DNA of 37,287 nt from sequence record SRR22947725_534. One strand, given 5' to 3'. Below are positions 1,606-32,573 of the stretch, piece by piece; position 1 is the stretch's first letter, and each line of letters begins with the position of its first letter. The translations under genes and the position numbers were made by a program. A model generated the notes under the pieces. That model was not told the DNA's origin. It saw only the letters and a list, made by a program, of their open reading frames with translations, and did no database searches.

Positions 1606-2385
1606 TCAACTTATCCTTTTAAGATATCCATTAGGTGCGACACTAATTAAGATCTTGTTATCTATGGTTTTATCTATTTTAAATTTAGCGTTATTACTAA
1701 TAAATTCATCTACAGCAGATTTGGGACTGTTATTTGGTCCCCAATTTCTATTTTTACTTGCAGGTAACTCATCTATAATTGTATCAAAAACTATACAATA
1801 ACTACCTTTTGAGACCAAACTTGAATAAGAACTTAATTCTTTAAGCACATGTTCATGTGAATGATTTGAATCTAAGCAAACTAAAATTTTTTTAAATTTT
1901 TTAGAATAAGTTTTTATTTTTTTTACAGTATCCTCCGCAGTTGAACTTCCTTCAATCATAGATATTTTTTTTGAAAGTGGATGACTATTAATTAATATTT
2001 TATTATGTTCTTTAATGTCAATATCAACACCTAAGACCATTCTCTTTGTTGGGATCAATGGTGAATTTTGATCTGAAGATAAATGTTCACAATAATCAAT
2101 TAATGCTAATACTGAAGCGTTAAAAATTAAAGATCCACCATGAGCAATGCCAATATCAATTATTAAGTCTGGCTTAACCTCCCATATGATTTCTTGAAGT
2201 ACAATTAAATCTTGAGGATATTGTATTACCGGTCTTGATAACCAATCAAAATGATAAGAGTAATTATAATCTAAACTTTTTTTAAACCATTTTTCAGATA
2301 TTTTTTTAAATTCTTTGTCATTTGCTTGCAGTTCTATCTCTTGCATTCTTTGGATTTTAAAATCTTTTATAGCGTCTGATCCCAT
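1606..2385 (-). CDS. CmcI (cephalosporin hydroxylase) family SAM-dependent methyltransferase, probable sugar O-methyltransferase
   Basis: Family motifs YSYHFDWLSRPVIQYPQD, KPDLIIDIGIAHGGSL, LDSNHSHEHVLKEL, WGPNNSPKSAV and VAPNGYLKR. Confidence 0.88.
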   Translation of the reverse strand: MGSDAIKDFKIQRMQEIELQANDKEFKKISEKWFKKSLDYNYSYHFDWLSRPVIQYPQDLIVLQEIIWEVKPDLIIDIGIAHGGSLIFNASVLALIDYCEHLSSDQNSPLIPTKRMVLGVDIDIKEHNKILINSHPLSKKISMIEGSSTAEDTVKKIKTYSKKFKKILVCLDSNHSHEHVLKELSSYSSLVSKGSYCIVFDTIIDELPASKNRNWGPNNSPKSAVDEFISNNAKFKIDKTIDNKILISVAPNGYLKRIS

Positions 2386-2388
2386 CTT

Positions 2389-3393
2389 TTACTCCTTGTA
2401 AAGCGTTCGTGACCCTTTATTATCGTAAGTTATTTTTGTTACAGGAAAATTAATAAGAGATGCACGCACTTGCTTCTGTAATTCAGGTGGAACAACTAGC
2501 ATTAAAAAACCTCCTCCTCCTGCACCACTTATTTTACCTCCTAAAGCACCACTTTCTAATGCCTTTTTATAAACAATATCAATGTTTTTATTACTGATAT
2601 CGAATGCTAGTTTTTTTTTATTTTCCCATGTTTCATTTAAAATTAAACCAAGCGCATTTGGAGTAAAATTGTTCACAAATAATTTATATACTTTAGAAGC
2701 ATGACTTTTTATTTGATTTAAATTTTTTATATTAATAGCTTTTGTATTATTAGCATTTTGTTCTTTTAAGACATCATTTGCTGACCTAAAAAGCTTGGTA
2801 GAAAAAAACATCAAGTTATCAAAAATAAAGTTAATTTTATTTCTTTCCATGTTTATAGGATTAATTTCAATCAAATTACTCCTTTTAAATATAATTTGAT
2901 TCAATCCTCCTATTGCAGTTGCAAATTGATCTTGTTTACCAATGGGGCTGCCTAGAATATTAATTTCTATATGACAAGCTTCCTCAGCCAACCTAAAATT
3001 AGAAACTTCCTCTCCTTTGAGTTCGTAAATAGCTCTTAATAAACCAACTGTAAATGCACTTGAAGAACCCAACCCACTATAAGCAGGAACGTCTGCTATA
3101 GTACTAATAAACAAAGGATCATCAAAATTCATGAATTTTAAAACTGATCTAATTATATTATTTTTTATATCATTTAAATGGTTTACATGCTCAGATGAAT
3201 AATAATTTAATCTGTATTTTTCAGGATTTACGCCGTAATCATGTCTTTTTACAGTAACGTAAACATATTTATCGATTGCACTACTTACTACCTGACCACC
3301 AAATCTACAAAAATAATTCTGAAAATCAGTGCCTCCACCTGCAAAACTTATCCTTAAGGGTGTTTTGGTTATTACAAAATTTTTGTTTTTCAT
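2389..3393 (-). CDS. hddA: GHMP kinase, D-glycero-alpha-D-manno-heptose-7-phosphate kinase-like
   Basis: TPLRISFAGGGTD, PAYSGLGSSS ATP loop, IGKQDQ and GGKISGAGGGGF; clustered with gmhA-like and gmhB-like genes. Confidence 0.85.
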   Translation of the reverse strand: MKNKNFVITKTPLRISFAGGGTDFQNYFCRFGGQVVSSAIDKYVYVTVKRHDYGVNPEKYRLNYYSSEHVNHLNDIKNNIIRSVLKFMNFDDPLFISTIADVPAYSGLGSSSAFTVGLLRAIYELKGEEVSNFRLAEEACHIEINILGSPIGKQDQFATAIGGLNQIIFKRSNLIEINPINMERNKINFIFDNLMFFSTKLFRSANDVLKEQNANNTKAINIKNLNQIKSHASKVYKLFVNNFTPNALGLILNETWENKKKLAFDISNKNIDIVYKKALESGALGGKISGAGGGGFLMLVVPPELQKQVRASLINFPVTKITYDNKGSRTLYKE

Positions 3394-4625
3394 TATTTAT
3401 AAAATTTCTCTATTAATGGTAAAGCCATTTTTAAATTCAAGAAATAATTTCTTTTGAACTTAGTTTTTTTAACCAGATCTATTTCGCCAATATACAAACA
3501 TTCTGTTCCTGCATTATCTGCTGCATAGCAATCCCTTATATCATCACCCACATATAGAACTTTATTTAAAGGTATACAAAAATCTTTTGACACTTGAAAA
3601 AAAAGTTGGGGATTAGGTTTTCTACATTTACAATTATCATTCCAGTGATGAGGACATATATAAAATCTTTCAATAGTTATGTCTAACTTCATTAATTCTT
3701 TTTTTATGTAGTTATTGATGTTATTAACCTGCTGTTCTGAAACTAGTTTTCTACCTATCCCGGCTTGATTTGAAATAACCACAAATGTGAACCCTTTTTT
3801 TGATAACACTTTTAGACTTTGAATTGTTTCTTGAACAAACTTTACAGAATCAATATCTTTTATATATTCGCCTTTTGGAGCCTTATGATTTATAGTTCCA
3901 TCTCTATCTAATAATAAGATTTTTTTAGGTAAAAGAAATTTTCTAGTTATATTTAATCTTTTTGCATCTGATATACTATAATATTCTGTATCTAGAATTT
4001 TAAAAGATACTTTTTTTTTATATATAAAAAGTTCTAACAAAGAGGAAAAATCATATTCTGAAGAAACATTAACTTTGTCAAAAAAATTTAATAAAATTTT
4101 CCTGTTAATTATCATGTACCCTAATTCAACATAATTTAAATTATTTTTTGTCCTAGTACGATCATAAGTTAAAATTTTATCATTATATATTTCAATATTG
4201 CCCTTTTTTTTTCTTTTCAATAATAATGTAATTAAGCTTTGATTTTGCATATGAATTTTTGTCATACTTTTTAATGAAACTTCTGCATAATTATCAGAAT
4301 AAAGTAACATAAAGTTTGAAGAAATTTTATCTTTTGCTTCCCATATTCTTTTACCCGTTCCCCAATCTACAGGACCTTCAGAATATGTTATGTTCCAACC
4401 CCAAAAACTTCCATCTTTGAAATAATCTTTAATCTTTCTAGAAAGATAACCAGTTAATAATAAAAAGTCCTTAATTCCTTGTGATGCTAACTGATCTAAA
4501 AGATAAAATAAAAAAGGTTTGTCTTCATTAATTATCACCATTGGCTTTGGAATGTTTTTTGTTATTGGTAACAATCTAGTTCCCAAACCACCACATAAAA
4601 TAACTGCTTGTGAAAGATTATTCAT
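3393..4625 (-). CDS. Fusion of a sugar-1-phosphate nucleotidyltransferase (HddC-like) and a HAD-IIIA heptose-bisphosphate phosphatase (GmhB-like)
   Basis: N-terminal ILCGGLGTRLLPIT..PKPM; C-terminal LLDRDGTIN, SNQAGI, CPH..CKCRKP (zinc site) and VGD. Confidence 0.88.
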   Translation of the reverse strand: MNNLSQAVILCGGLGTRLLPITKNIPKPMVIINEDKPFLFYLLDQLASQGIKDFLLLTGYLSRKIKDYFKDGSFWGWNITYSEGPVDWGTGKRIWEAKDKISSNFMLLYSDNYAEVSLKSMTKIHMQNQSLITLLLKRKKKGNIEIYNDKILTYDRTRTKNNLNYVELGYMIINRKILLNFFDKVNVSSEYDFSSLLELFIYKKKVSFKILDTEYYSISDAKRLNITRKFLLPKKILLLDRDGTINHKAPKGEYIKDIDSVKFVQETIQSLKVLSKKGFTFVVISNQAGIGRKLVSEQQVNNINNYIKKELMKLDITIERFYICPHHWNDNCKCRKPNPQLFFQVSKDFCIPLNKVLYVGDDIRDCYAADNAGTECLYIGEIDLVKKTKFKRNYFLNLKMALPLIEKFYK

Positions 4626-5509
4626 TTCTGTCTACACAATTCTATTAATCCATCCTTTATGTTTTTTTTAGGTTTCCAGTCAAGATAATATTTTGCTTTT
4701 GTAATATCTGCATAAAACCCATTTGTATTTTTTATATATCTTCCATTTTTTTTAATCTCATTTGTAAAACTATTTGTATTTAAAACAATCTTTTCAAGAT
4801 TTGATAAAATTTTTACAACCTCAGTCAAATAACCACTTCCAAAATTATAAATTCCAGATGGCGCATCGTGTGTTATAAATCTTTTCAATCCTTCAGAAAC
4901 ATCCAGAACATTTACAAAATCGTTACAAGCATTAATAGACTTTATGATGGGGTCTTTATTTTTTTGAAAATTATTAATTATATTAGGTATCAGAGAATCT
5001 TTTCTTTGATAAAAACCATAAACATAAAATAGACGTGCCCAATAAAGCTTTATATTTTTTTCTTTTAAAATTTTATTAGAAAATATGTTTATTAAATTTT
5101 TAGTCCATTCAAACCATTGCTCTGGGTTAACAAGTTCATCCTCATTACAATTTCCATTAACTTTATTATATTCTAAACAAGTTCCGGTAATAACCACCTT
5201 TTCGATTGAACGAATATTAGATAAATGATGCATCAAATTAATCGATGAATTTAAATTTTTTAAACAATTATCAAATGAGAAATCAGGGATACCTTCCCAA
5301 GATAAATGATAAACTACAGTGGGTTTAAAATCATTTATAATATGCATATGATTTTTTATATCACTTAAATCAGTTTTTATCCAAGAAACATTGTCTTTAT
5401 TAGTATTTTTTTTCCTAGAAGTGGCAAGCACTTCTATATTATTCTCTTGTAAAATATTAATTAAATTTTTTCCTATAAAACCCGATGCTCCTGTAATTAA
5501 TATATTCAT
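4622..5509 (-). CDS. Extended SDR, probable NDP-4-keto-sugar reductase
   Basis: ILITGASGFIG, GTCLEY, RLFYVYG and DFVNVLDV; the YxxxK position reads FEWTK. Confidence 0.8.
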   Translation of the reverse strand: MNILITGASGFIGKNLINILQENNIEVLATSRKKNTNKDNVSWIKTDLSDIKNHMHIINDFKPTVVYHLSWEGIPDFSFDNCLKNLNSSINLMHHLSNIRSIEKVVITGTCLEYNKVNGNCNEDELVNPEQWFEWTKNLINIFSNKILKEKNIKLYWARLFYVYGFYQRKDSLIPNIINNFQKNKDPIIKSINACNDFVNVLDVSEGLKRFITHDAPSGIYNFGSGYLTEVVKILSNLEKIVLNTNSFTNEIKKNGRYIKNTNGFYADITKAKYYLDWKPKKNIKDGLIELCRQK

Positions 5510-5513
5510 ATGA

Positions 5514-6044
5514 TTAAGCTTTATAATACGGTAAACCTAGGTCTTTTTCTGATATTATTTTGGGTTCTATTGGCCAAGATATATTAAATGAAGGATCATC
5601 AAATCTAAACCCTTTATCTTTTTTTGATTCAAAATAATCACCCATATAATAATGAAGTACAGTATTATCTTTTAGGGTTAAGAAAGCATTAGCACATCCA
5701 GCGGGAATATAAATACTATATTTATTTTCGGAAGAAAGCTCTAAAGCTATTTTTTTTAAATATGTTGGTGATTTTTTTCTTATATCAATTGTTATATTCC
5801 ATGCACTTCCAGTTATACAGGATAACAATTTGTCTTCTTTTGAAGGGATTTCATTATAATGAAATCCTCTCAATGTACCAACTTTGAAGTTTTCCGAGAT
5901 ATTTCCTTGCATGACATTGAAATTAACACCTATATCAAAAAAAAATTTTTTACAAAAATGCCGCCTAAAAATACCTCTGTTATCCGACAAGACTTCAGGA
6001 CGTATTATATAATAATTCTGTATATTTGTTTTTTCAAACTTCAT
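5514..6044 (-). CDS. RmlC-like NDP-4-keto-sugar 3/5-epimerase (cupin)
   Basis: DNRGIF, GTLRGFHY, DIRKKSPTY, YIPAGCANAFLTL and WPIEPKIISEKD. I prefer the ATG at 6044 (MKFEKTNI), which overlaps the upstream stop, to the track start at 6074. Confidence 0.9.
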   Translation of the reverse strand: MKFEKTNIQNYYIIRPEVLSDNRGIFRRHFCKKFFFDIGVNFNVMQGNISENFKVGTLRGFHYNEIPSKEDKLLSCITGSAWNITIDIRKKSPTYLKKIALELSSENKYSIYIPAGCANAFLTLKDNTVLHYYMGDYFESKKDKGFRFDDPSFNISWPIEPKIISEKDLGLPYYKA

Positions 6045-7278
6045 AAATTTTTGGCTCATAAGGAAGTGGAACAATGACAGAACCTCTATAACCTATGTCT
6101 AAAAGTTCTTCATGAATTTCTTTTTCAAAATTCCATGCTAAAATTATAATACATGAAATTTTATCAAGATGCGTAATACTGTCCTTCAATGATAATATTT
6201 TAATATCAGAACCAGGTGTAATCATATCTTTTTTTAAATCATTCTTATCAATTATAAAATCAATTTGATTATTATTGATACCACAAAAATTTAAAATCGT
6301 TGAACTTCTTGCTGATGCACCAAAACCAATAACTAGTCCTTGTTTTTTCTTATTTAAAATCATTTCTTTTAACTTTTGGGCATGAGTAATAGAGTTTTTT
6401 GCAAAGAGTTTCCATCTCTCAAGAGAATTGACGCCTTTATCCATTTCATAATTTTCTGCTTCAATTAACTTTTGAGATTTAGTTTTCTTAACTTTTGAGA
6501 AGAAAATTACTAGTGATCCACCACTAATAGGGCTTTTCTCGTAGTCATAAATATATAAATTACAATTATTTAGAAAATTATTTAATGTAAAAATAGAAAA
6601 GTAAAAAATATGCTCGTGATAAATAGAATCATAGTGCAACTCTTCAAGAATTGTTTTAGAATAGTGAAACTCAATAACACCAAGATTTTTTTCATTTAAT
6701 AATATTGATATACCATCGAGTATTGATTTGATTTCTTTTACATGCGGAATTACATTTCTTGCAATCACAACAGAAGGATGACCGTCGTTTTTTAATATAT
6801 TTTCAGCAAGCTTTTTATTAAAAAACTTTGGGATAGTTCTAATTCCATCTTTATTTGCAATTTTAGCTATATTTTGTGCTGGATCGACACCTAATACATT
6901 ATAACCTTTCTTTGAAAACTCTTTTAAAAATGTACCGTCATTACTAGCTAACTCCAATATATAATTCTTATTTAAGCTTATATTACACAATTTTCTAATA
7001 ATTAGGTCACAAAAGATTTTGCTATATGTTTTTGCACCATTTGATGTGCCAGATACCCACAAATAATTATCAAAGAGATATTTTGGATCAACTATCTCAC
7101 TTAATTGCAATAGTTTACATTTTATACAAAAAATAAGTTTTAAATCAATTAATGGAAGTTTTTTCTGGTCTTCAAGCCTTAAACTGTTTGCAGGTGGTTG
7201 AGCGCCAAGATCCAACACTAAGTCTAATTGATTATTATTGCAGTTTTGACAATGATTTACCTTTTCACTTATTTTCAT
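6034..7278 (-). CDS. NDP-sugar C-methyltransferase (TylC3/EryBIII/NovU-type)
   Basis: N-terminal CxxC...LDLGAQPPAN...CxxCKLLQL zinc domain, ELASNDGTFL SAM loop, DSIYHEH motif and C-terminal GFGASARS...LAWNF...VPLP. Confidence 0.88.
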   Translation of the reverse strand: MKISEKVNHCQNCNNNQLDLVLDLGAQPPANSLRLEDQKKLPLIDLKLIFCIKCKLLQLSEIVDPKYLFDNYLWVSGTSNGAKTYSKIFCDLIIRKLCNISLNKNYILELASNDGTFLKEFSKKGYNVLGVDPAQNIAKIANKDGIRTIPKFFNKKLAENILKNDGHPSVVIARNVIPHVKEIKSILDGISILLNEKNLGVIEFHYSKTILEELHYDSIYHEHIFYFSIFTLNNFLNNCNLYIYDYEKSPISGGSLVIFFSKVKKTKSQKLIEAENYEMDKGVNSLERWKLFAKNSITHAQKLKEMILNKKKQGLVIGFGASARSSTILNFCGINNNQIDFIIDKNDLKKDMITPGSDIKILSLKDSITHLDKISCIIILAWNFEKEIHEELLDIGYRGSVIVPLPYEPKIYEV

Positions 7279-8302
7279 AAAAATAAAGTTCCTTATTTAA
7301 TTGTTTTTCATTTAGCATCTGATTTATTTTTAACAACCTAGTGCAATTAGATCCTCTAAAATACTCTTCGTTAAAATTAATTTTTTTGAAAAAATTAAAT
7401 AACTCCTTTCCTCCATTATTAAGGTTCCATTTTGGTTTATAATAATCTTTAAGTTCAGTTAGTATTCTATTAAAACTTATCTTATAACTCCTAGAATCAA
7501 TATGTTCATTAGTAAAAATTAATTGACTTCCTGGAACAGCTTTTTGAGCTGCTTCTGCTATTTGTTTAACTGTGTAATTTCCATTCGGAACGCCAACATT
7601 AAAAGATCTTCCATTTACCAATTCCTCTGGGGCCTCTAGGCCAGCAATTAATGCCGAACAAAGATCTTTAACATGAACTACCGGCCTCCACGGTTTGCCG
7701 TCACTTTTAATCTCTATCTTCCCTGTAGTAAAAGCACAGCCAACTAAGTTGTTAAATACAACATCACACCTTAACCTAGGGCTCACTCCAAAAACAGTTG
7801 ATGGTCTCATAAATGTAATACAGAATTTTTTTGAAGCTATTTTTTTTAGTTCACATTCAGCCATCCACTTGGTTTTAGCATAAGCAGTGACAGGGTTTTT
7901 ATCAGAATTATCCTCATCCAATTCATCATCTGTATTTGCTACACCATACATACTTAATGATGAAACATAAACAAATCTTTTTACGCCAGCCTTCTTAGAT
8001 AAGAACGCAATTTTAAGAGCAGCTTCATAATTAATTTTTTCTGTAATACCTTTAGCCAATTCTCCTAATGGATCGTTAGATAAAGCTGCTAAATGTATAA
8101 CCGCGTCAATATTTTTTAAATCACTGATTTCTATATTTCTAATATCTTTTAGAATTTGCATGTCTGTTTGAAATGGATCAGTCAAAATACAGTCTTTGAA
8201 ATAACCAGTATCAAAACCAATAACATTGTAATTTTTCTTTATTAGCTCCGGTACAAGAACAGTTCCAATATAACCTAAATTTCCAGTTACTAAAATTTTC
8301 AT
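7265..8302 (-). CDS. NAD-dependent NDP-sugar epimerase/dehydratase/oxidase (extended SDR)
   Basis: LVTGNLGYIG, HLAALSNDPLG, catalytic YAKTK, SPRLRCDVVFN and SDGKPWRP. Confidence 0.88.
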   Translation of the reverse strand: MKILVTGNLGYIGTVLVPELIKKNYNVIGFDTGYFKDCILTDPFQTDMQILKDIRNIEISDLKNIDAVIHLAALSNDPLGELAKGITEKINYEAALKIAFLSKKAGVKRFVYVSSLSMYGVANTDDELDEDNSDKNPVTAYAKTKWMAECELKKIASKKFCITFMRPSTVFGVSPRLRCDVVFNNLVGCAFTTGKIEIKSDGKPWRPVVHVKDLCSALIAGLEAPEELVNGRSFNVGVPNGNYTVKQIAEAAQKAVPGSQLIFTNEHIDSRSYKISFNRILTELKDYYKPKWNLNNGGKELFNFFKKINFNEEYFRGSNCTRLLKINQMLNEKQLNKELYFYENK

Positions 8303-8371
8303 AATAAAAATAGTGAATTATAAAGGTATTTAATTAGCTTTATCATTAGAGTATTTCCTATGTCATTATCA

Positions 8372-8992
8372 CTAAAATAGTCGTTTATTAATTAAGTCTT
8401 CTTTCATATTCTTCATTCTAATAAACTGAGCAATTATTTGCATTAATGATTGAAAAACATCTTCGATTATTCCATAATTGTCCGACTTTACATTAATATT
8501 TATATCAGAAATTTTTAAACTTTCACCACCACAAAAACCAGTAAATGAAATAACATTTAGACCTAATTCTTTTGCTGATTTCATAGCATTTATTATATTT
8601 GGTGAATTTCCTGATGCGCTTATTGTGAGTAAAGTATCATCGTTTTCTCCTAAGTTTTTAATTTGATAAGAGTAAATTTCATCATAAGATATATCATTAG
8701 ACAGTGCAGTAATCATCTCAATAGAGTTAGACAGTGAATAAATTTTAACTCTAATGTTTGTATCTGTTCCAATTAGTTTTCCATGATCACATACCATGTG
8801 ATTTGCAATTGCCGCGGACCCTCCATTTCCACAAACATACAAAGTTCTATTATCTAAATATGTTCTTTCAATCAATTTTGTCATATCTTCTAAAGCAATA
8901 AGATCTAAATTTTTAACAGCTATGCTTTGCTTCCTAATATACTCTTTTGTAAATTCTGAAATTTTGTTATATTTTTTATTAGGAAAAGTCAT
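8372..8992 (-). CDS. gmhA: SIS-domain phosphosugar isomerase, GmhA-like (atypical C-terminal motif)
   Basis: CGNGGSAAIANH, TALSND, ISASGNSPNI and TGFCGG. ATG at 8992; the track's TTG start is one codon upstream. Confidence 0.8.
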   Translation of the reverse strand: MTFPNKKYNKISEFTKEYIRKQSIAVKNLDLIALEDMTKLIERTYLDNRTLYVCGNGGSAAIANHMVCDHGKLIGTDTNIRVKIYSLSNSIEMITALSNDISYDEIYSYQIKNLGENDDTLLTISASGNSPNIINAMKSAKELGLNVISFTGFCGGESLKISDININVKSDNYGIIEDVFQSLMQIIAQFIRMKNMKEDLINKRLF

Positions 8993-9002
8993 CAACTAAG
9001 CC

Positions 9003-9965
9003 TTATTTATTAAAAGGAAATTTTTCGTTTGAAGTGATTTCTTTAAATATATTATTAAAATTTATTTTGTATATATCATCATTTGGAATATTATCATTAT
9101 TATTTCTTGAACGTAAGTTGAGACTTACTTTACATTCTGGGATATTTTTAATTACATTGTAAGACAAATTATATAATTCCTTATGATTACTTTTAGAATC
9201 ATCAATTATAACTAATTTTTTTGATTGATTAGTTAACTTTAGAACTTGGTCCCAATTAGTTGGCATTACACATGATGCATTTACCAAAGATGGTTTTAAA
9301 CCTCTTTTCTTAAAATAATCACATAAATTTAGTCCATTTTGAAAAGCAAAGTTAGTGCAGAGGACAGTTACATCTTCCCCATCAAAATATTTATACAAAC
9401 AATTTTTTTTATCAAGTAACATCGGCTTTTTATTTGAATATATTATCTCATTCTTAAATAATTTTTGACTAACACATATAAATCTAACACCTGGATTTAT
9501 AAGATAATTATTTATAACAAGTTTAGCATCGTCTATATTTGATATAGTATAACCCGAAATATTTGATAATGAACTAATGTCACGTAACATATTAATACAT
9601 GATTGAGGCCCTTCAAAACCGTTATCAACAACTATTGAAAAAATAGTATAACTGGATTTAAATTTATTAATTGATAAAGAATTCCAAGTATGAACAAAAT
9701 GATCCATGCCTAATAACGTAAAGTCTTGCTGTTTATGAAAATAAATAGCATTAACACCTTCAACCATTAATCCAAAACCAACACCGGACATAGAATATTC
9801 GTTATTTGTTGTGTTTAAAATTAAGTTTTTGTTCTGCTCATTTATACCTCTTGTTAAGCCTCCTAAACAAGACCCAGTTGTAATGTTCTGTCCAAAACAA
9901 ACAGTATTTTCTTTTTTCTGAATTATGTTCTTTATTAATGAGTTTAAATATGAAATATACTGCAT
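9003..9965 (-). CDS. ThDP-dependent E1-beta / transketolase C-terminal-like subunit (divergent)
   Basis: CFGQNI...GGLTRG...NTTNNEYSMSGVGFGL...QQDF resembles the E1-beta pyrimidine-binding domain; GEDVTV and KKLVIID in the C-terminal domain; adjacent to an E1-alpha gene. Confidence 0.75.
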   Translation of the reverse strand: MQYISYLNSLIKNIIQKKENTVCFGQNITTGSCLGGLTRGINEQNKNLILNTTNNEYSMSGVGFGLMVEGVNAIYFHKQQDFTLLGMDHFVHTWNSLSINKFKSSYTIFSIVVDNGFEGPQSCINMLRDISSLSNISGYTISNIDDAKLVINNYLINPGVRFICVSQKLFKNEIIYSNKKPMLLDKKNCLYKYFDGEDVTVLCTNFAFQNGLNLCDYFKKRGLKPSLVNASCVMPTNWDQVLKLTNQSKKLVIIDDSKSNHKELYNLSYNVIKNIPECKVSLNLRSRNNNDNIPNDDIYKINFNNIFKEITSNEKFPFNK

Positions 9966-9966
9966 A

Positions 9967-10890
9967 CTATAACTTTCTTAACTCTAATTCGACTTCTGAA
10001 GAAACTTCTTTTAAATCAATAGATTCAATGATTTCTTTTAATGCATATATAGGGTCTTTTTTATTTTTTTTGATATATGGCCAATTAAATATATCAATTG
10101 TAGGTGCAGGACCTGCATGATAATTAATAAATTTTCCTTTTGGGTTTTCATCTGACTTTAATTTCCAGTCACCTAAACTTGTCAGCATTACTTCTATTAC
10201 TACAGGACCTTTTGTGTTTAAAGCAACTTTACGTAATTTTTTAATTTTGTCTATGTAATCAAATACATCGTTATTTTGTAATTTAGTGTAAGTTCCACCT
10301 ACACTCTTAGCTAAAAACTCAACATTAATCTCACATCTTCTTTCTTGTATTGTCGAACCAAGTGACCAACCATTATTTTCTATAATAATTATTGATGGCA
10401 GTTTATGAGAAGCTAAAACCAATAATGTTTCATAAAAACTGCCTTCCTCCATAGCTCCATCACCAGTAACAATAAAAACTATGTTTTTTTTTCCTTTTGA
10501 CTTCAATCCTAATGCAACTCCAGCACCTACGCCAAGGTTGTTACCCAATATACTTGATGTATATAAAATATTTTTGTTTTTATTTGAAAGGTTCATTGAA
10601 CCTTGTTTTCCAGACGATAATCCATTTTTATTTAGAGAGTATTCATTTACTAAATCAACAAGAGATGCACCTCGAGCAATATTATAATGAATATTCCTGT
10701 GAGAAAGTATCATTCTATCTTCAGCAAACAACGCATTACCAGCTGCGACTGCAATTGCTTCATGCCCAAGTGCTAAATGAATGGGTATTTTAAAAGATTT
10801 ATTTTTATATTTTTCATTTATTAGCAATTGTATAAAGCGCATCTGCAAAAGCTGAGTAGCAATTATAATTTTATAGTTATTTTTTTTCAT
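9967..10890 (-). CDS. ThDP-dependent dehydrogenase E1-alpha-like subunit
   Basis: IHLALGHEAIAVA, SHRNIH, GKQGSMN and the ThDP/Mg motif GDGAMEEG...IENN. Confidence 0.88.
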   Translation of the reverse strand: MKKNNYKIIIATQLLQMRFIQLLINEKYKNKSFKIPIHLALGHEAIAVAAGNALFAEDRMILSHRNIHYNIARGASLVDLVNEYSLNKNGLSSGKQGSMNLSNKNKNILYTSSILGNNLGVGAGVALGLKSKGKKNIVFIVTGDGAMEEGSFYETLLVLASHKLPSIIIIENNGWSLGSTIQERRCEINVEFLAKSVGGTYTKLQNNDVFDYIDKIKKLRKVALNTKGPVVIEVMLTSLGDWKLKSDENPKGKFINYHAGPAPTIDIFNWPYIKKNKKDPIYALKEIIESIDLKEVSSEVELELRKL

Positions 10891-10898
10891 TTGTTTCT

Positions 10899-11783
10899 TT
10901 AAATATAATTTAAAAAATTTCCAAGTTCTTTTAGCCCTTTATCTAATGTAATAGTAGGTTGCCAATTTAGAACTTTTTGAGCTTTTATAGGGTCAACTTT
11001 TCTAATATTAGGTGTATCTGAACTAGTTTCAAAAACTTTTATTTCTTTATTTAATATTGCTTTACTATTATTAATTATATCACCTAAAGAAACGAACGAA
11101 CTACCTTGAATATTTAATATATTAAATCCAGAAAGTCCTATTGATGCAAAAATTCCATTACATAAATCTCTTACGAAGATAAAATTTCGTCCTGTTTTCA
11201 AAGAACCTACACTAACTTCGTCCTTTAAAGCAACATTACTAAAAATTGATTCAACTGCAGACCAGTTTTTAAGCCTTGCTCCATATGTAATTCCAAATCT
11301 TAGGATACTAGTATCACAAAAGTTTTGATTAAATTTTTGTTTTAAATTTAATTCACTTACGTACTTTGATAAAGCATACTCAGAAGATAAATTTACGGGG
11401 TTAATTTGTGAATATTCATTTTTTATTTCATTGTTTGTAAAACTATCATAAACCCATTCTGAAGATGCAAATATAAATTGTTTTACATTTTTTTTCTCGG
11501 ACGCTTCTATTAGGTTCAAAGTGCCCATCACATTTGAATTAAAGCAATTTAATGCATTATTTTTACAATCATTATCACGCGTTAGCCCCGCTAAATGAAT
11601 TACAGCATCTGCTTCTTCAGGAATTAAGTCTGTTATTTTATTTTCATTAAGATCACACACAAAACAATCTTTTCTGTCGCTTTCTAATAAATCAACTCCA
11701 ATAATTTCAACATTTTTTTTATCACAAAGCTTTATTAACTCTTTACCTATAAAGCTACTAGATCCAGTTATAAAGATTTTCAT
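10899..11783 (-). CDS. NAD-dependent epimerase/dehydratase (extended SDR)
   Basis: FITGSSSFIG, IHLAG, FASSEWVY, catalytic YALSK and LRFGITYG. Confidence 0.88.
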   Translation of the reverse strand: MKIFITGSSSFIGKELIKLCDKKNVEIIGVDLLESDRKDCFVCDLNENKITDLIPEEADAVIHLAGLTRDNDCKNNALNCFNSNVMGTLNLIEASEKKNVKQFIFASSEWVYDSFTNNEIKNEYSQINPVNLSSEYALSKYVSELNLKQKFNQNFCDTSILRFGITYGARLKNWSAVESIFSNVALKDEVSVGSLKTGRNFIFVRDLCNGIFASIGLSGFNILNIQGSSFVSLGDIINNSKAILNKEIKVFETSSDTPNIRKVDPIKAQKVLNWQPTITLDKGLKELGNFLNYI

Positions 11784-12940
11784 GAATTATTTCCTTTAAA
11801 ATTTAACTTAAAATCCGCAAGCTTGTCTGCAATTAATTTTCCAGAATTACCTGAACCAAACCTTTTATCAGATTTATATCTTCCATTTTTTAATTGTTCC
11901 ATTATTTTTTTTAAAATACTCTTTCTATCATAGCTAGAATACATAATGTTATTTCCAGTCTCCCTTCCTTTTTGTCTATCTCCAACAATAACGGCAGGAA
12001 CACCAAGATACGCTCCTTCTCTAATGAAAGATGAAGAGTTGCCAATGTTACAAATTGAATTGTTTAAAACTCTTGCATAATCTTCGGGAGAAAAGTTTTT
12101 GTGATAATAAATATTATCGTCCATGTTAAATTCTCTAAAATGACGAATACCTTTAGAAACATCGTCACTTCCAGCATCAATATTGGGCCACATTACAATT
12201 TTTTGAATTTCTGGAATTTTCTTTAATGAAAGTAATGTTTCAGTTATTTGAGAAAATCCGTTTCCATAGCTAGTAGTTACAGGATGTTGTAATACTAGTA
12301 AATAAGGTTTTGTCCAGTCTATTTGTTTTCCTACTCCAGTGTAAGATTTCATAATTTCATTAGATATAGTTAAATCACTATTAAAAAGGATATCCATTGA
12401 AGGACATCCAAAATTAAAAATATTTTTTTCATTCGTACCCATTGACACTAATTTCTTAGCGGAGGCATCGCTTGCAGGAAAATGAATGTCAGCTAAATTA
12501 GATATTGCATTTCTTACTTTATTATCAATGTTTCCACTAACATCCCCACCTTGAAGGTGCACAAGTGGAATATTTAAATATGAAGAAGAAATTGCCGTTG
12601 CCATAGTTTCGTATCTATCAGCTACGGTTACAACCATATCTGGATTAAGATCTTCAAAAGCTGTAGCTAATTCTACAATACCAAGACCCGTTGATTTTGC
12701 TTGTGTAATTAAATTCTCGCCTTCTACTACAAAATAAATAGATCTAGAAGAAGTGAAACCATCTTTTTTAACTATATCTATTCCTTTCCCAAATCTTTCA
12801 AGTAATATTGATGCACCTAATATTAATTGAAGGTTTAAATTAGGGTGCTCTTTTATAGCTTTCATTAAATATTTAACACGTCCATAATTAGCTCTACTAG
12901 CAACTACGATGCAGATATTTCTTTTTTTCTTTTTTATCAA
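11780..12940 (-). CDS. neuC: Hydrolysing NDP-N-acetylglucosamine 2-epimerase (NeuC/LegG family)
   Basis: ASRANYG, ADRYE, HLQGGDVSGNID, LQHPVT, WPNIDAG, GNSSS and GDRQKGRE; next to neuB. Confidence 0.9.
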   Translation of the reverse strand: MIKKKKRNICIVVASRANYGRVKYLMKAIKEHPNLNLQLILGASILLERFGKGIDIVKKDGFTSSRSIYFVVEGENLITQAKSTGLGIVELATAFEDLNPDMVVTVADRYETMATAISSSYLNIPLVHLQGGDVSGNIDNKVRNAISNLADIHFPASDASAKKLVSMGTNEKNIFNFGCPSMDILFNSDLTISNEIMKSYTGVGKQIDWTKPYLLVLQHPVTTSYGNGFSQITETLLSLKKIPEIQKIVMWPNIDAGSDDVSKGIRHFREFNMDDNIYYHKNFSPEDYARVLNNSICNIGNSSSFIREGAYLGVPAVIVGDRQKGRETGNNIMYSSYDRKSILKKIMEQLKNGRYKSDKRFGSGNSGKLIADKLADFKLNFKGNNS

Positions 12941-12949
12941 TTTTAACTC

Positions 12950-13987
12950 TTATTCAAAATCACTGTAATATAAATAGTCCCATTTCTTTTTATTCTGTTT
13001 AAGCCTTTTACCTATAATATTTTTATAATCTGAAACAGGAATGCCTGCATCAGCTGGCTTTTTACCTTCTAAGTTTTCAAAAGAAATCAAATCACCTAGA
13101 ATATGGTCTTTATTGACAGACAAAGATCTTCCAAACATATTTTTTAATAGATAAAAATTTTCATCAGTCTCTTTACTATTATTATTTTTTCTTGCTTCTT
13201 CTAGATAGCGAATACCTTGTACAAGTTGATTAAATTCATCAACGGTTAAAGATGAAGTCGAATCTGGACCAAACATCCTCTTATCAAAAGTCATATGCGC
13301 TTCTACGATTACTGCTCCAAGAGCAACCGCTCCCAATCCAGCATAAATTTTTCCAGAATGATCCGATAGACCAACTGGACAATTATAGCGCTTCTTAAAA
13401 TCCTTTATTGCACTTAAATTAACATCGCTTGGGGAAGTGGGGTAACTTGTAGTGCATTGAAGTATAGAGAATAAAGCTTTATTTTTTTCTAAAAACTTTA
13501 CAGTTTTATCTAAATCAGATTTTAAACCAAGGCCAGTTGATAAAATAATTTCTTTTTTAGTTTTCAAGATTTTTTCTAATATTAAATAATTACTTATATC
13601 TCCGGAACCAAGCTTGTACCTATTAACTTTTAATTTTTCTAAAACATCAACTGCTGCGTTTGAAAAAGGCGTAGCCAAAAATTCTACATTTAAACTTTCA
13701 CAATATTTTTTAATTTTATACCACTGATCAAATGTAAGTTGCATCCTTTTCCAATACTCATACCTATTATTATCAACATAGGAAAAGTTAACTCTGAAAG
13801 GTTCATTTAAACTACTTTCTGCATCGGCAATATGTATCTGAAACTTGACTGCATCAACACCAACATCTGCTATTGCTCTAATCATAGAGTATAACATACC
13901 TAAACTTCCATCATGAGCTTGCCCAATTTCAGCTATCACGAATGTTTTACCGGAATGTTCATAATCTTTTATTTTCAATTTAATCAC
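12950..13987 (-). CDS. neuB: Nonulosonic acid synthase (NeuB family) with C-terminal SAF/antifreeze-like domain
   Basis: VIAEIGQAHDGS, DAVKFQ, KLGSGD, ILSTG, LQCTTSYPT, GLSDHSG and EAHMTFD...GPD. Confidence 0.92.
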   Translation of the reverse strand: MIKLKIKDYEHSGKTFVIAEIGQAHDGSLGMLYSMIRAIADVGVDAVKFQIHIADAESSLNEPFRVNFSYVDNNRYEYWKRMQLTFDQWYKIKKYCESLNVEFLATPFSNAAVDVLEKLKVNRYKLGSGDISNYLILEKILKTKKEIILSTGLGLKSDLDKTVKFLEKNKALFSILQCTTSYPTSPSDVNLSAIKDFKKRYNCPVGLSDHSGKIYAGLGAVALGAVIVEAHMTFDKRMFGPDSTSSLTVDEFNQLVQGIRYLEEARKNNNSKETDENFYLLKNMFGRSLSVNKDHILGDLISFENLEGKKPADAGIPVSDYKNIIGKRLKQNKKKWDYLYYSDFE

Positions 13988-14931
13988 CTATTAAAGTTAT
14001 TATTTGCTTTCGTAATATTTTTTATAAATTTATCAACAATAAATATATCTGTTCTTCTTCTTGATTCATATGTCATTCCCCCAATATGAGGTGTAAGAAT
14101 TAAATTCTTTGATTTCTTTAATTTTAAAAACATCTCTAATTTGTTTTTTTTTAACTCTCCGCAAATTACATCCAGAGCAACCCCTAAAAAAAAATCCTTT
14201 TCTATTGCATTTATTAAATCATTCTCATTAACCAATTCACCTCGAGCAGTATTTATAAAAAACTTATTCTTCATTAGGTTTATCTCAAATTTACCAATAA
14301 TTTCTCCAATTTTTTTTTCATGATTTGCACATAAAATTATAATTTTTCCCCATTTCAATAAATCGTGAATATTGTCATATTTCACCCAATTTTTTTTAGG
14401 CCTAATTTTTTTAACATCGTACCAACCTATTTTGGCACCAAAAGCCTCACAATATTTTGCAACTCTTGAGCCAACTCTCCCTAAACCAATTATTGCAACA
14501 TTACTATTATTTAATTCATATCCACAATATTGGTCTCTATCCCAATCTTTTTTTTTGTTAATATTAAAAACAGAGTTGTAGTTTCTTAATAAAGATATAA
14601 TGAGCCCAAAGGTGTGTTCCGGGGTTGCTCTAATATTTTGAAGAAAAACTTTTTCATTTTTTAAGCTAATTATTTGGATTTTATTTTTTTTTAACTCGTA
14701 TTCGTCAAGATGAGTGTGTCCCGTTGTTGGTGTACAAATCCATTTTAATCTTGGGCACATTTTAATAAATTCTTTATTAATATCGAAGCCTAATTTAACA
14801 AACAAAACATCAAGACCATTAAGAAAAAGATTAAGATCTGTACCGTCATAAAAAGTTAAAACACCAATTTCTTTTAGCTTTTCATTTGATTTTTCATAAA
14901 TACTTTTATATTCCATAAATCCTATTTGCAT
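13984..14931 (-). CDS. D-isomer-specific 2-hydroxyacid dehydrogenase family
   Basis: TPTTGHTHLD, ATPEHT, IIGLGRVG, INTARG, ALDV..E and LTPHIGG. Confidence 0.88.
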   Translation of the reverse strand: MQIGFMEYKSIYEKSNEKLKEIGVLTFYDGTDLNLFLNGLDVLFVKLGFDINKEFIKMCPRLKWICTPTTGHTHLDEYELKKNKIQIISLKNEKVFLQNIRATPEHTFGLIISLLRNYNSVFNINKKKDWDRDQYCGYELNNSNVAIIGLGRVGSRVAKYCEAFGAKIGWYDVKKIRPKKNWVKYDNIHDLLKWGKIIILCANHEKKIGEIIGKFEINLMKNKFFINTARGELVNENDLINAIEKDFFLGVALDVICGELKKNKLEMFLKLKKSKNLILTPHIGGMTYESRRRTDIFIVDKFIKNITKANNNFNR

Positions 14932-15617
14932 AGCATAGCTCTTAGAATTTCAAGATCTTCTTCAGTATCAATAGTAATTGAACTTTTTTTATCCATTTTG
15001 AAACACATAGGATTTTCAGAAATAATTCTCTTGTGCTTTTTAAAGTAACTAATTTTAGTCAAGTATATTGCTCCATTACGAACTAAAATCGGCCCATGTT
15101 CCTGACGTAAACTACCTTTGTTATGATACTTATTTAATGGTTCTAAATAACCCATTTCATTTTCATTATACATTACTAAATCACAGATATAATCTTCTTG
15201 ATAACAAGAAATTAGAGAATCTGCATTGCTATTTTTAAATTTATTTATAATTGTCACTAAATCATCAAAATGTCTTTGAGGACTTGTTGGCTGAAGAATT
15301 AAGACAGCGTCGTAAAATTCATTTTTATTCTCAAAAAAATTTATAGCATGCATTATATATTCTTGTGCTTTTGACTTATCACCTGAAAAATTACTAGGAC
15401 GAACAAAAGGAATGTCAGCTCTATTTTTTTTTGCTTCTTCTATTATTTCCTTATCATCCGACGAAACTATGCATCTATCTATTACACTTTCTTTAACAAG
15501 CATGTTACCTATTTCAATAGACCAAGCTATTAGAGGTTTACCACATAACTCAGCTAAGTTTTTTTTATATATACCCTTAGAGCCACCTCTGGCGGGAATA
15601 ATTGCAAGAATTTTCAT
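14922..15617 (-). CDS. neuA: Acylneuraminate (nonulosonate) cytidylyltransferase
   Basis: IIPARGGSKGIYKKNL, LQPTSPQR, NGAIY and IDTEED. Confidence 0.92.
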   Translation of the reverse strand: MKILAIIPARGGSKGIYKKNLAELCGKPLIAWSIEIGNMLVKESVIDRCIVSSDDKEIIEEAKKNRADIPFVRPSNFSGDKSKAQEYIMHAINFFENKNEFYDAVLILQPTSPQRHFDDLVTIINKFKNSNADSLISCYQEDYICDLVMYNENEMGYLEPLNKYHNKGSLRQEHGPILVRNGAIYLTKISYFKKHKRIISENPMCFKMDKKSSITIDTEEDLEILRAMLCK

Positions 15618-15654
15618 TTACAGTGTCTCACTTTTTAAAAATTTGGAATAAATT

Positions 15655-16611
15655 TCAATAATTGCCAATTTTTTCACCCACTTTTAGTAAATCGTTTAAA
15701 TAACTAATTTTTACTAACCTTTTATCAGATTGCTTATTTAAAAAAGATTTGTTTTGTTGATATACTCCCGCTTTAAATTTTAAATCTAAATTATCATCAA
15801 TGGCTAATTCTTCAACCTGAAAACTATTTCTTTTCATAACTTTAAGCTTCTCTAGAGGAGAAAAAATAAATCTGTGTGACCTTGTCATCCATTCAAAACT
15901 CCAACGTCCTGGGCAGTTCCAATTAGCATGATAGACAAATGGAATACCTTTTTCAGTCAAACCTGAACCAAAAAATATTGATGTTGATTTATGCCATTCT
16001 AAATTTTCATTCTTATGTTGAAAATTAGATTTTTTTAAATCTGGTAATCCAACAGGAAAAAAAGCTGTATCTATAACATGTAAGCTGTTAGCTAGTACCC
16101 ATCTTTGTTTTACATCCTCTAATTGATTAACAGGACCTTTTTGGGGTCTTATAATTTCATTAAATTCAAAATTCACACTTTCAATTTTTTCTTTTTTGTC
16201 TCTTATTAAATTTAAAGCAAAATTTATAGAAGAATAAAACCTTCTATTAAATGCTATGAAAATATTGATATTCAGATTTTGTATTTTTTTCAAAAATAAT
16301 TTTGAATCTTCTGAATTCAAAAAGAATGGTTTTTCAATTAATAAATTTTTAACATTATGCTTTATTAATTTTGTAACTAAGTCATGTAAAGTTTGAATAG
16401 GTGTTGCTAAAATAACATGGGTAGGAGAATGTTTTTTAAAAAGCTCTTGAAAATCACCTTCAAAAAAAATTCCACCATTTTCAATAATTTCATTTTTTCT
16501 ACTATTTGAAGGGGACCAACCAACTAATTCATCAACATTAAGAAAAGATAAAGCCTTCAAATGGGCTTGACCCATCTTTCCAGCACCAATAACTAAACAT
16601 TTTTTTTTCAT
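15655..16611 (-). CDS. Gfo/Idh/MocA family oxidoreductase
   Basis: VIGAGKMGQAH, LIEKP, AFNRRFY and NSLHVID. Likely ATG at 16611 with AGG upstream; the track start at 16653 overlaps the previous gene. Confidence 0.85.
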   Translation of the reverse strand: MKKKCLVIGAGKMGQAHLKALSFLNVDELVGWSPSNSRKNEIIENGGIFFEGDFQELFKKHSPTHVILATPIQTLHDLVTKLIKHNVKNLLIEKPFFLNSEDSKLFLKKIQNLNINIFIAFNRRFYSSINFALNLIRDKKEKIESVNFEFNEIIRPQKGPVNQLEDVKQRWVLANSLHVIDTAFFPVGLPDLKKSNFQHKNENLEWHKSTSIFFGSGLTEKGIPFVYHANWNCPGRWSFEWMTRSHRFIFSPLEKLKVMKRNSFQVEELAIDDNLDLKFKAGVYQQNKSFLNKQSDKRLVKISYLNDLLKVGEKIGNY

Positions 16612-16618
16612 AATCAAC

Positions 16619-21954: not shown

Positions 21955-22660
21955 CGGAGTTCCTATCTAAAATATCTATAATGCCTCTAACTCCAATATT
22001 CATTAAACCATCTATTATTGACATACCAGGTATAAAAATCGATGTCATTTGTTGCTTATAAATTTTCGCTTGAAACTCTTGCCAAGTAACTGCAATCGAA
22101 TTTTTTGTAAATATTTTGGTATCTAAATATCCTAATGATCCATTCCCACATAAATATGTATCTCCATCACATTGCTTAACAAGAGAAATCAATAATTCAT
22201 TAGAAGAACCATTATGACTCAAAGATGATGAAGTTATTATTTTTTTTGAATTGATTCCTAAATGACCACATAAATTAGTTATTGCATTTAAATTGTACAA
22301 ACTTATTGATTGCTCTTCAAAAAGAATTAAGGGCTCAATTATTTTTAAGCCATCATTATAGAAATCAGCTTTTCTATAGTTAAATTTTATCTTTCTCAAG
22401 AGATCAAGTTTATTCTCATTATCTTTAAAAAACATTTCATTTATATTTTTATAGCCGTTATAATTTCTACTAATTGGAAGGGTTAACCAGCTTTCTTTTC
22501 CTGAAACTAAAATTTTAACTCTATTGGACCAGGTACCGGAACTTTTTTTTTGAAACTGAACATCATCTAATATTATAAAACAGTCACTTTGTTTAATCTT
22601 ATGAAAATAAGCTAACCAAGGAAAAAAATTAGGTTGATGAATGGCTACAATTTTTTTCAT
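21944..22660 (-). CDS. WbqC family protein
   Basis: AIHQPNFFPWLAYFHKI..SD.FIILDDVQF, WSNRVKI, WLTLP, YLCGNGS.GYLD and PGMSIIDGLMN. Confidence 0.9.
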   Translation of the reverse strand: MKKIVAIHQPNFFPWLAYFHKIKQSDCFIILDDVQFQKKSSGTWSNRVKILVSGKESWLTLPISRNYNGYKNINEMFFKDNENKLDLLRKIKFNYRKADFYNDGLKIIEPLILFEEQSISLYNLNAITNLCGHLGINSKKIITSSSLSHNGSSNELLISLVKQCDGDTYLCGNGSLGYLDTKIFTKNSIAVTWQEFQAKIYKQQMTSIFIPGMSIIDGLMNIGVRGIIDILDRNSDDY

Positions 22661-30158: not shown

Positions 30159-30259
30159 TTTATTTTAAGTATTTATGTTTTTAACTTAACCTTCAATTTA
30201 AGTTTCATATGCAATCTAACTATATATAAATCAATATTATATTAATCTGTGAACATAAC

Positions 30260-31276: not shown

Positions 31277-31354
31277 AGTAATTCCTAATTTTATATTATT
31301 TTTTTTTAATTAATTTATTAATGCTATTAAAGACTTTAAATTACATTAAGCATT

Positions 31355-32521: not shown

Positions 32522-32573
32522 TCTTCAAAGGCCTTTAAACAAGTATCAATAATTCAAGATCTATAATCATCAA

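Follow-up and report, generated by a model that had tools for sequence, protein, structure and literature searches.

Introduction

A 37,287-nucleotide stretch of DNA from sequence record SRR22947725_534 (the window) contains eleven contiguous minus-strand genes, at 1606–11783, that combine heptose-type sugar activation with a sugar C-methyltransferase and a two-subunit, thiamine diphosphate (ThDP)-binding E1 pair. Several described systems share part of this set. In Campylobacter jejuni, guanosine diphosphate (GDP)-heptose is processed by a toolbox of dehydrogenase, dehydratase, epimerases, C3-dehydratase, reductases and mutases, in which the 4-keto product of Cj1427 is released and its tightly bound NADH is recycled by alpha-ketoglutarate (PMC10680097). 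This capsular pathway, which comprises GmhA/HddA/GmhB/HddC, Cj1427, C3/C5 epimerases and C4 reductases, resembles the window cassette in its heptose activation from a ketose phosphate, its C4 dehydrogenase, its cupin epimerase and its further short-chain dehydrogenase/reductase (SDR). It differs in that its enzyme list has no C-methyltransferase or ThDP enzyme, the terms 'methyltransferase' and 'C-methyl' occurring 0 times in that paper (PMC10680097).

The closest counterparts of the E1 pair come from antibiotic biosynthesis. AviB1/AviB2 and Pau11/Pau12 are E1-like pairs proposed to acylate keto sugars (PMC4753412), E1-like sugar acylation has also been proposed for EvdS6 with EvdU5/EvdS3 (PMC10338323), and the 'alpha-KADH2' class, expected to transfer a pyruvate-derived two-carbon unit to a ketone and so give a tertiary alcohol, includes KbDH, tested in vitro (PMC12247030). 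Like AviB1/AviB2, Pau11/Pau12, the aldgamycin pair, EvdU5/EvdS3 and KbDH-alpha/beta, the window pair is a predicted two-subunit ThDP enzyme without E2/E3, beside a candidate 4-keto-generating SDR. The known pairs belong to antibiotic clusters of actinomycetes, where their substrates are keto sugars derived from deoxyhexoses or pentoses, whereas the window pair is encoded in a surface-glycan locus together with genes for heptose activation and has its relatives in non-actinomycete bacteria and archaea. A 2025 review places the E1-type class mainly in specialised antimicrobial natural products and assigns cell-surface glycans to YerE-like enzymes (PMC12247030).

Acyl-branched sugars of lipopolysaccharide are made by these single-chain YerE-like enzymes on cytidine diphosphate (CDP)-dideoxyhexoses, and 'heptose' occurs 0 times in the paper that describes them (PMC9306805). 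YerE/YerF (yersiniose) and ErwE-type systems thus resemble the cassette in placing an acyl branch on a 4-keto nucleotide sugar for a cell-surface glycan (PMC9306805, PMC12247030). They differ in using a single-chain enzyme of the decarboxylase superfamily on CDP-3,6-dideoxy-4-keto-glucose rather than a split E1-type pair. A route from GDP-mannose to GDP-beta-D-virenose (6-deoxy-3-C-methyl-gulose) has been hypothesised and only partly characterised; it too would lead to a surface-polysaccharide sugar with a C-methyl branch, possibly linked to a guanosine nucleotide, but virenose is a hexose and the route has no ThDP enzyme (PMC3204966).

We read the eleven genes as one conserved, horizontally shared cassette that would make a nucleoside diphosphate (NDP)-heptose and remodel it through 4-keto intermediates, and we give this reading an even chance. 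What is established is the family assignments, the key motifs, the co-conservation and the synteny. These results partly support an earlier sequence-based interpretation of the same genes (the original prediction), which envisaged 4-oxidation, C-methylation, epimerisation and reduction of an NDP-heptose or octose.

The cassette and its genes

The window is one large glycan locus with a G+C content of ~27% and with almost all of its genes on the minus strand. The eleven open reading frames (ORFs) between 1606 and 11783 either overlap or are separated by gaps of at most 69 bases. Their families, and the glycosyltransferase family 2 (GT2) gene that follows them, are those given in the original prediction, with which the ORF coordinates and the Pfam and NCBIfam scans agree. 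The calls in Table 1 were based on these scans and on solved (Protein Data Bank) relatives found by sequence. A single base separates the E1 alpha gene from the E1 beta gene, and the SDR2 and C-methyltransferase genes overlap by 14 bases. Because the annotated start of the RmlC-like gene overlaps the C-methyltransferase gene by 41 bases, its true start may be further downstream. A partial glycosyltransferase family 4 (GT4) gene comes after the GT2 gene downstream of the cassette.

Table 1. Cassette genes and the following glycosyltransferase gene in transcription order, with the number of E1-beta-anchored loci that contain each family (kb, kilobases; PDH, pyruvate dehydrogenase; HAD, haloacid dehalogenase; SAM, S-adenosylmethionine)
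Predicted product	Coordinates	Strand	Basis	Loci (of 59)	Loci of at least 14 kb (of 42)
SDR1, extended SDR	10899–11783	−	Pfam Epimerase E 1.2e-32; human UXS1 E 3.5e-19	39	30
E1 alpha, ThDP-binding subunit	9967–10890	−	PF00676 E 8e-32; solved PDH E1 alpha E 1.1e-22	49	36
E1 beta-like subunit	9003–9965	−	small, very divergent subfamily; family profile against 1um9_B E 8e-17		
GmhA-like SIS-domain sugar-phosphate isomerase	8372–8995	−	SIS_2 E 1.1e-21; TIGR00441 102.9 bits (cut-off 209.45)	21	19
SDR2, probable NDP-heptose C4 dehydrogenase	7265–8302	−	6vo6 E 6.9e-34; TGNLGYIG, YAKTK	25	20
NDP-keto-sugar C-methyltransferase, TylC3/TcaB9/MtmC type	6034–7278	−	PF08421 + PF13489 + PF08484; MtmC 4rv9 E 1.3e-58	31	28
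RmlC-like cupin epimerase	5514–6074	−	PF00908 E 1.3e-49	31	27
SDR3, atypical extended SDR, Rmd-like fold	4622–5509	−	2pk3 E 9.6e-18; F133xxxK137	27	24
HddC-like nucleotidyltransferase (N-terminal) and GmhB-like HAD-IIIA phosphatase (C-terminal) fusion	3393–4625	−	NTP_transferase residues 7–140; HAD residues 235–377	32	29
HddA-like GHMP kinase	2389–3393	−	nearest solved relatives are heptose kinases	39	34
CmcI-family SAM methyltransferase	1606–2385	−	PF04989 E 4.9e-84 over residues 41–258	31	28
GT2 glycosyltransferase, candidate transferase for the product	756–1604	−	PF00535 E 6.5e-20	10	

Conservation of the cassette across genomes

E1 beta, the rarest component, was used as the anchor in a scan of one genome per species, which gave 59 loci at 27–44% identity, 42 of them at least 14 kb long. 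The 979 ORFs called in these loci were clustered and labelled according to their best match to the window proteins. The family counts are lower bounds, since even E1 beta passed the ORF filter in only 53 of the 59 loci. The most widespread families among the anchored loci are the window's own cassette families (Table 1), of which the GmhA-like family is the least conserved. The C-methyltransferase, the HddA-like kinase and the E1 pair, whose co-occurrence the original prediction had proposed as a check, are found together in 21 of the 59 loci (19 of the 42 longer ones), and together with a GmhA-like gene in 11 of the 59.

Gene order is conserved as well as gene content. The same-strand order GmhA, SDR2, C-methyltransferase, RmlC, SDR3, HddC/GmhB, HddA, (SDR1), E1 alpha, E1 beta, CmcI was seen in six loci (L038, L049, L024, L015, L021 and L018), of which L038 belongs to a Methylophilaceae isolate; L024 and L047 have members of all eleven families. 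The genes that flank the cassette in the window were scarce near E1 beta elsewhere (NeuB in 4, NeuC in 2, GT4 in 0 and GT2 in 10 of the 59 loci), which places the upstream cassette boundary at ~11783; the boundaries coincide with those originally predicted. In L013 and L047 a GT2 relative directly follows CmcI. The eleven-gene set is not a chance juxtaposition.

A second cassette type, mainly from Alphaproteobacteria (L004, L014, L027, L035 and L039), has no SDR2. Its conserved part consists of the E1 pair, SDR1, the kinase, HddC/GmhB and CmcI, to which a classical SDR, a further methyltransferase and a PhyH-type dioxygenase are added. Magnetospirillum sp. SS-4 and Jiella sp. LLJ827 carry this variant.

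The anchored loci come from Alphaproteobacteria (including magnetotactic lineages), Methylophilaceae, Nitrospirota, Planctomycetota, Omnitrophota, Chloroflexota, Bacteroidota and Acidobacteriota, and also from Saccharimonadota and other Patescibacteria, Methanosarcinales and Nitrososphaerota, a distribution that is both wide and patchy. In a quick E1 beta tree the phyla were intermixed and the cassette-type label needed 12 changes; the window branch was long (1.86) and its composition biased. This quick tree gives a hint of horizontal transfer, which it suggests and does not prove. Published N-glycoproteomics of Nitrososphaerota, in which neither heptose nor methylated sugars were reported and the Nitrosopumilus species examined yielded no glycoprotein, is uninformative here (PMC12153357).

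Other genes were seen near the E1 cassette in some loci. Radical SAM/SPASM genes accompany it in 10 (L006, L001, L005, L009, L023, L025, L032, L036, L044 and L002), PhyH-type dioxygenases in 6, glyoxalase-fold proteins in 7 and DegT aminotransferases in 8. These extras suggest further tailoring variants of one sugar scaffold. Searches of phage (50,697 records) and plasmid collections with E1 beta by tblastn gave no match; one near E1 beta Atlas cluster is recorded as 50% viral (Uroviricota, with the phylum known for 4 members only).

Heptose activation enzymes

The matches of the kinase to solved heptose kinases (3k85, E 4.5e-44; 4usk/4usm, ~1e-40; 4n3o, 1.1e-39) are far stronger than that to fucokinase, the next kinase type (only 7.7e-14), whereas its score against the HddA equivalog model NF049969 is 161.7 bits, with a cut-off of 600. 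The protein is thus a member of the heptose-7-phosphate kinase clade, not an HddA equivalog, and is predicted to act on the anomeric position of a heptose phosphate. The other three activities also score below their curated equivalog cut-offs: the isomerase in the gmhA model (Table 1), the phosphatase in GmhB NF006506 (138 against 178) and the nucleotidyltransferase in HddC NF049965 (91.5 against 300). Since every NCBIfam score is below its cut-off, the GmhA, HddA, HddC and GmhB-like proteins are distant relatives rather than equivalogs. The NDP-heptose-type activation set of the original prediction is supported by the affinities of the kinase, but not at the level of equivalogs for any of the four enzymes.

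This distance also bears on the octose option of the original prediction. In lincomycin biosynthesis a transaldolase builds an octulose phosphate, which is activated by an isomerase, a kinase, a phosphatase and a nucleotidyltransferase (LmbN/P/K/O). The activation logic is the same as in the window, and the lincomycin enzymes, like those of the window, are only distantly related to the canonical heptose enzymes. The window, however, has no transaldolase. By the same logic the E1 pair might act like a transketolase or DXS, extending a sugar phosphate by two carbons to an octulose or nonulose phosphate before activation by the GmhA/HddA/GmhB/HddC-like enzymes, an arrangement with which all four divergent activation enzymes would be compatible, as would the position of the GmhA-like gene in the window, 7 bases after E1 beta. 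That position is unusual. Among the 42 loci with adjacent E1 alpha and E1 beta ORFs, the set used for all counts of E1 neighbours, GmhA adjoins the pair in only 2, and the gene directly upstream of the pair is more usually an NDP-sugar enzyme, SDR1 in 14 or the RmlC-like gene in 8; in 25 loci SDR1 is one of the first three ORFs upstream. These neighbours argue that the E1 pair acts at the NDP-sugar level and not on an octulose phosphate before activation. The low conservation of the GmhA-like gene also speaks against the octose route, as does established chemistry, from which the pyruvate-derived product would be expected to be a 1-deoxy-ketose that an aldose-ketose isomerase could not convert to an aldose. 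We consider this route very unlikely.

C4 dehydrogenase, C-methyltransferase and RmlC-like epimerase

SDR2 aligns with 6vo6 over residues 2–311, and the next solved SDR is much more distant (3.1e-16). We take 6vo6 to be Cj1427, the C. jejuni GDP-heptose C4 dehydrogenase, so that SDR2 and the kinase would both have their nearest solved relatives among heptose enzymes. SDR2 carries the NAD-binding glycine motif and a YxxxK motif, has a plain SSxS pattern without the acidic residue seen in SDR1, and has relatives at 55–65% identity in 15 loci. It is a probable NDP-heptose C4 dehydrogenase.

The C-methyltransferase has the three-domain architecture of the TylC3/TcaB9/MtmC enzymes, with a Zn-binding domain (PF08421, 2.3e-14), a SAM methyltransferase domain (PF13489, 1e-13) and PF08484 (9.6e-31). 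Residues 6–405 align with the mycarose 3-C-methyltransferase MtmC, so that the alignment is full length, and TcaB9 is matched at 1e-43. When aligned to MtmC (4rv9) the protein keeps the four Zn-site cysteines and the Y-H-E-H motif, which is the active-site motif in TcaB9. Every locus homologue that covers the region concerned shares these features: the first CxxC is found in all 13, and the second CxxC and YHEH are each found in all 14. The solved enzymes use 2,6-dideoxy or 3-amino hexoses linked to deoxythymidine diphosphate (dTDP), whereas the neighbours of the window enzyme point to an NDP-heptose. Placing the methyl group at C3 rather than C5 is a prediction. The nearest named relatives, at ~50% identity, are from marine metagenome-assembled genomes.

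The RmlC-like protein is a clear PF00908 member that scores 139.2 against TIGR01221 (cut-off 155.75). Its affinities are with the dTDP-sugar RmlC (E 7.6e-34) rather than with the C. jejuni GDP-heptose epimerases (~1e-17). Taken with the exclusive use of dTDP-hexoses by the solved C-methyltransferase relatives, this would fit the case that the original prediction had named as its refutation, namely that the substrate of the C-methyltransferase, the RmlC-like protein and SDR3 is a dTDP-, CDP- or GDP-6-deoxy-4-keto-hexose supplied by genes elsewhere in the genome, and that the three lie near the heptose genes by coincidence. The C-methyltransferase family is also large: among the 8000 candidates scored, 3127 clusters reach E<=1e-30, whereas E1 beta has 152 at E<=1e-3. 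This fits as well, since close relatives of this enzyme must often occur without an E1 pair. Against coincidence, the order GmhA, SDR2, C-methyltransferase, RmlC, SDR3, HddC/GmhB, HddA is kept across six phyla, the C-methyltransferase gene overlaps that of SDR2, and the NCBIfam scan of the window proteins found no RmlA or RmlB equivalog in the window. Given the conserved synteny, we think it improbable, to about the same degree as the octose route, that these are accidental hexose enzymes, and we retain the NDP-heptose as their predicted substrate.

The E1 pair and SDR1

E1 alpha carries the ThDP motif GDG...NN at residues 143–173. As a single sequence E1 beta gave marginal, sub-threshold Pfam and NCBIfam matches only, and a single-sequence search found no solved relative. 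A profile of 25 sequences did match solved E1 beta subunits (Table 1), and the identification is also backed by feature-based Atlas neighbours. Glu56, which is invariant in the 25 sequences, would be the cofactor-activating glutamate. The E1 beta family is rare: its 152 cluster relatives came from 2429 candidates, and in 1.84 billion representatives the profile found 129 at E<=1e-30, 370 at 1e-10 and 1239 at 1e-3. No E2 or E3 family was found in the Pfam scan of the window or among 12 further annotated neighbour families. The pair therefore has the adjacent alpha and beta genes, the ThDP motif and the beta glutamate of an E1-type sugar C-acylase, with no E2/E3 family found. Relatives are annotated as 'pyruvate/2-oxoglutarate/acetoin dehydrogenase E1 component', which would suit an ordinary pyruvate or acetoin dehydrogenase component that happens to sit in a glycan locus; with no E2/E3 family found nearby, a divergent and rare E1 beta, and neighbours that are consistently sugar-modifying genes, this is scarcely credible.

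An acidic residue beside the catalytic Ser/Thr (TSE/TDE type) marks the UXS/ArnA decarboxylases and the GMD/RmlB dehydratases. SDR1 has such a residue in its Ser-Ser-Glu motif, together with YALSK as its YxxxK motif. Within its family S-(S/T)-E is found in 34 of 35 rows (the remaining one has S-S-D) and YA(L/F)(S/T)K in 35 of 35. To the original prediction this adds, for SDR1, a motif of the dehydratase or decarboxylase type; the sequence is compatible with either reaction. SDR1 is probably a C4-oxidising enzyme of the 4,6-dehydratase, decarboxylase or oxidase type that feeds the E1 pair.

The best solved relative of SDR1 is the human UDP-glucuronate decarboxylase UXS1 (UDP, uridine diphosphate), and this raises the question of whether the cassette makes one sugar or two. 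The heptose genes with SDR2, the C-methyltransferase, RmlC and SDR3 might give a C-methyl heptose, while SDR1, as a UXS/ArnA/EvdS6-type enzyme, would decarboxylate UDP-glucuronic acid from general metabolism and the E1 pair would acetylate the resulting 4-keto-pentose to a eurekanate-like sugar unrelated to the heptose. The Ser-Ser-Glu motif and the contiguity of SDR1, E1 alpha and E1 beta agree with this, and the published eurekanate hypothesis pairs EvdS6 with EvdU5/EvdS3 in the same way (PMC10338323). On the other hand, 39 of the 59 loci have the heptose kinase alongside the E1 pair, including all five named loci that have no SDR2. A nucleotide-sugar 6-dehydrogenase is absent from the 22 most frequent neighbour families, and the only one in the window (35129–36406) is of the TviB/WbpA type, which acts on UDP-N-acetylglucosamine (UDP-GlcNAc). 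We consider the pentose branch unlikely, and place SDR1 and the E1 pair on the NDP-heptose.

SDR3 and the CmcI-family methyltransferase

The nearest solved relative of SDR3 by sequence is 2pk3, of the GDP-6-deoxy-4-keto-mannose reductase (Rmd) type. The predicted model (predicted local distance difference test score, pLDDT, 94.9) gave the same protein as the top fold match (E 6.5e-21; template modelling score, TM, 0.81), so that sequence and model agree on an extended SDR fold closest to Rmd. The YxxxK motif, however, is not conserved: the catalytic tyrosine is replaced in the window protein, and of the 20 family rows 18 have Phe at this position, one has Leu and one has Tyr. Because of this replacement we do not file SDR3 as a canonical reductase. 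The affinities of SDR2 and the TylC3-type enzyme agree with the predicted oxidation and C-methylation, but the final 'reductase' is not supported. The missing tyrosine is a further difference from the C. jejuni pathway, as are the scores of the activation enzymes below their cut-offs. Beside the Phe position, the window protein and 19 locus ORFs share an invariant Glu113 in a G(S/T)C-x-E-Y motif. The family may be a tyrosine-less extended SDR subfamily with a different proton donor.

The CmcI-family protein matches PF04989 over most of its length and scores 88.2 against the rhamnosyl O-methyltransferase equivalog NF045824 (cut-off 400). It is probably a sugar O-methyltransferase. Its gene lies directly downstream of E1 beta in 8 of the 42 loci.

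Proposed pathway

In the pathway that we propose, the GmhA-like isomerase, HddA-like kinase, GmhB-like phosphatase and HddC-like nucleotidyltransferase would convert a ketose phosphate, most likely sedoheptulose 7-phosphate, to an NDP-heptose. SDR2 would oxidise C4, the MtmC/TcaB9-type enzyme would add a C-methyl group beside the ketone, most likely at C3, and the RmlC-like cupin would epimerise the product. SDR1 would give the E1 pair a 4-keto sugar, perhaps a 6-deoxy sugar formed by 4,6-dehydration. By analogy with AviB1/B2, Pau11/12, EvdU5/S3 and KbDH, the E1 pair would decarboxylate pyruvate and put a two-carbon acyl branch on the ketone, producing a tertiary alcohol. The last changes to the sugar, a reduction or isomerisation and an O-methylation, may be made by SDR3 and CmcI, and the GT2 would move it to a surface glycan.

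Several points weigh against this proposal. All chemical steps, the nucleotide used and the regiochemistry are inferred. With four activation enzymes below their equivalog cut-offs, the substrate may not be sedoheptulose 7-phosphate, and the RmlC-like protein has its affinities with the dTDP-sugar epimerases rather than with those of GDP-heptose. SDR1 and SDR2 are both candidate 4-keto generators and are redundant in a single linear pathway, which has no obvious 4-ketoreductase because SDR3 lacks the canonical tyrosine. The E1 pair is likened to AviB1/B2-type enzymes by descriptions and gene context and not by sequence. The baseline for co-occurrence was the window's own flanking genes rather than unrelated glycan loci, and absences carry little weight in the 17 of 59 loci that are shorter than 14 kb.

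The cassette has two modules, one of GmhA, SDR2, C-methyltransferase, RmlC and SDR3 and the other of SDR1, E1 alpha, E1 beta and CmcI. The two 4-keto generators, the cassette type without SDR2 and the much larger family of the C-methyltransferase compared with E1 beta favour such modularity. One product and two sugars drawn from a shared NDP-heptose pool are both compatible with these data. A more specific form of the proposal, which we regard as doubtful, is a single O-methylated heptose with two branches, one a C-methyl group and the other an acyl or hydroxyethyl unit of two carbons installed by the ThDP enzyme, and thus a doubly C-branched ten-carbon skeleton, that serves in cell-surface glycans and has spread horizontally among free-living bacteria, Patescibacteria and ammonia-oxidising archaea. 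If correct, it would be the first heptose with a C-branch, and an E1-type sugar C-acylase would for the first time have a role at the cell surface.

Neighbouring genes in the window

Upstream of the cassette, and overlapping SDR1 by 4 bases, a nonulosonic-acid gene set occupies 11780–16653 on the minus strand. It includes NeuC-like (TIGR03568, 338.8 bits, above the cut-off) and NeuB-like (287 bits, below the cut-off) proteins, a PseF/NeuA-like cytidylyltransferase, a GFO/IDH/MocA oxidoreductase and a D-2-hydroxyacid dehydrogenase, the last of which is unusual within a NeuBCA set.

The minus-strand genes at 28537–36406 resemble a 2,3-diamino-uronic acid pathway, with a TviB/WbpA-like UDP-GlcNAc 6-dehydrogenase, a GFO oxidoreductase, a hexapeptide acetyltransferase, a DegT aminotransferase, an SDR, a formyltransferase and a WbmS-like deacetylase. 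An asparagine-synthase-type amidotransferase (25762–27657) and a WbqC-like protein (21944–22660) are encoded downstream of this stretch. A TylF-like methyltransferase gene (27745–28527) is the sole sizeable plus-strand gene in the otherwise unidirectional locus.

Four ORFs that encode proteins of 240–493 amino acids (16619–17593, 19273–20754, 20761–21954 and 22661–23383) had no Pfam match at E<=1e-5 and no NCBIfam match at E<=1e-25. They lie near an MsbA/PglK-like ATP-binding cassette transporter gene (23395–25215) and may be polymerase, flippase or transferase genes.

Implications

The enzyme types of the cassette are all known. What appears to be undescribed is their combination (heptose activation, C4 dehydrogenase, C-methyltransferase and E1-type carboligase), the substrate class and the biological context. 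The original prediction knew of no characterised pathway that C-methylates a nucleotide-heptose, and in the literature searched we likewise found neither a C-methylated heptose pathway nor heptose activation together with the C-methyltransferase/E1 ThDP combination; the 2024 catalogue of Krug et al., which is outside that search and reportedly lists ~120 clusters with E1-type enzymes, may bear on this.

The order of the combination is conserved across distant lineages, among them Methylophilaceae, Planctomycetota, Omnitrophota, Chloroflexota, Saccharimonadota, Nitrospirota and Nitrososphaerota. If our reading is correct, an NDP-heptose C-methyltransferase, a ketone-accepting ThDP enzyme and a tyrosine-less SDR would be available as testable enzymes. 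E1-type sugar C-acylases would extend from antibiotic clusters into cell-envelope biosynthesis, and abundant environmental microbes would be expected to carry branched higher sugars of a new family on their surfaces.

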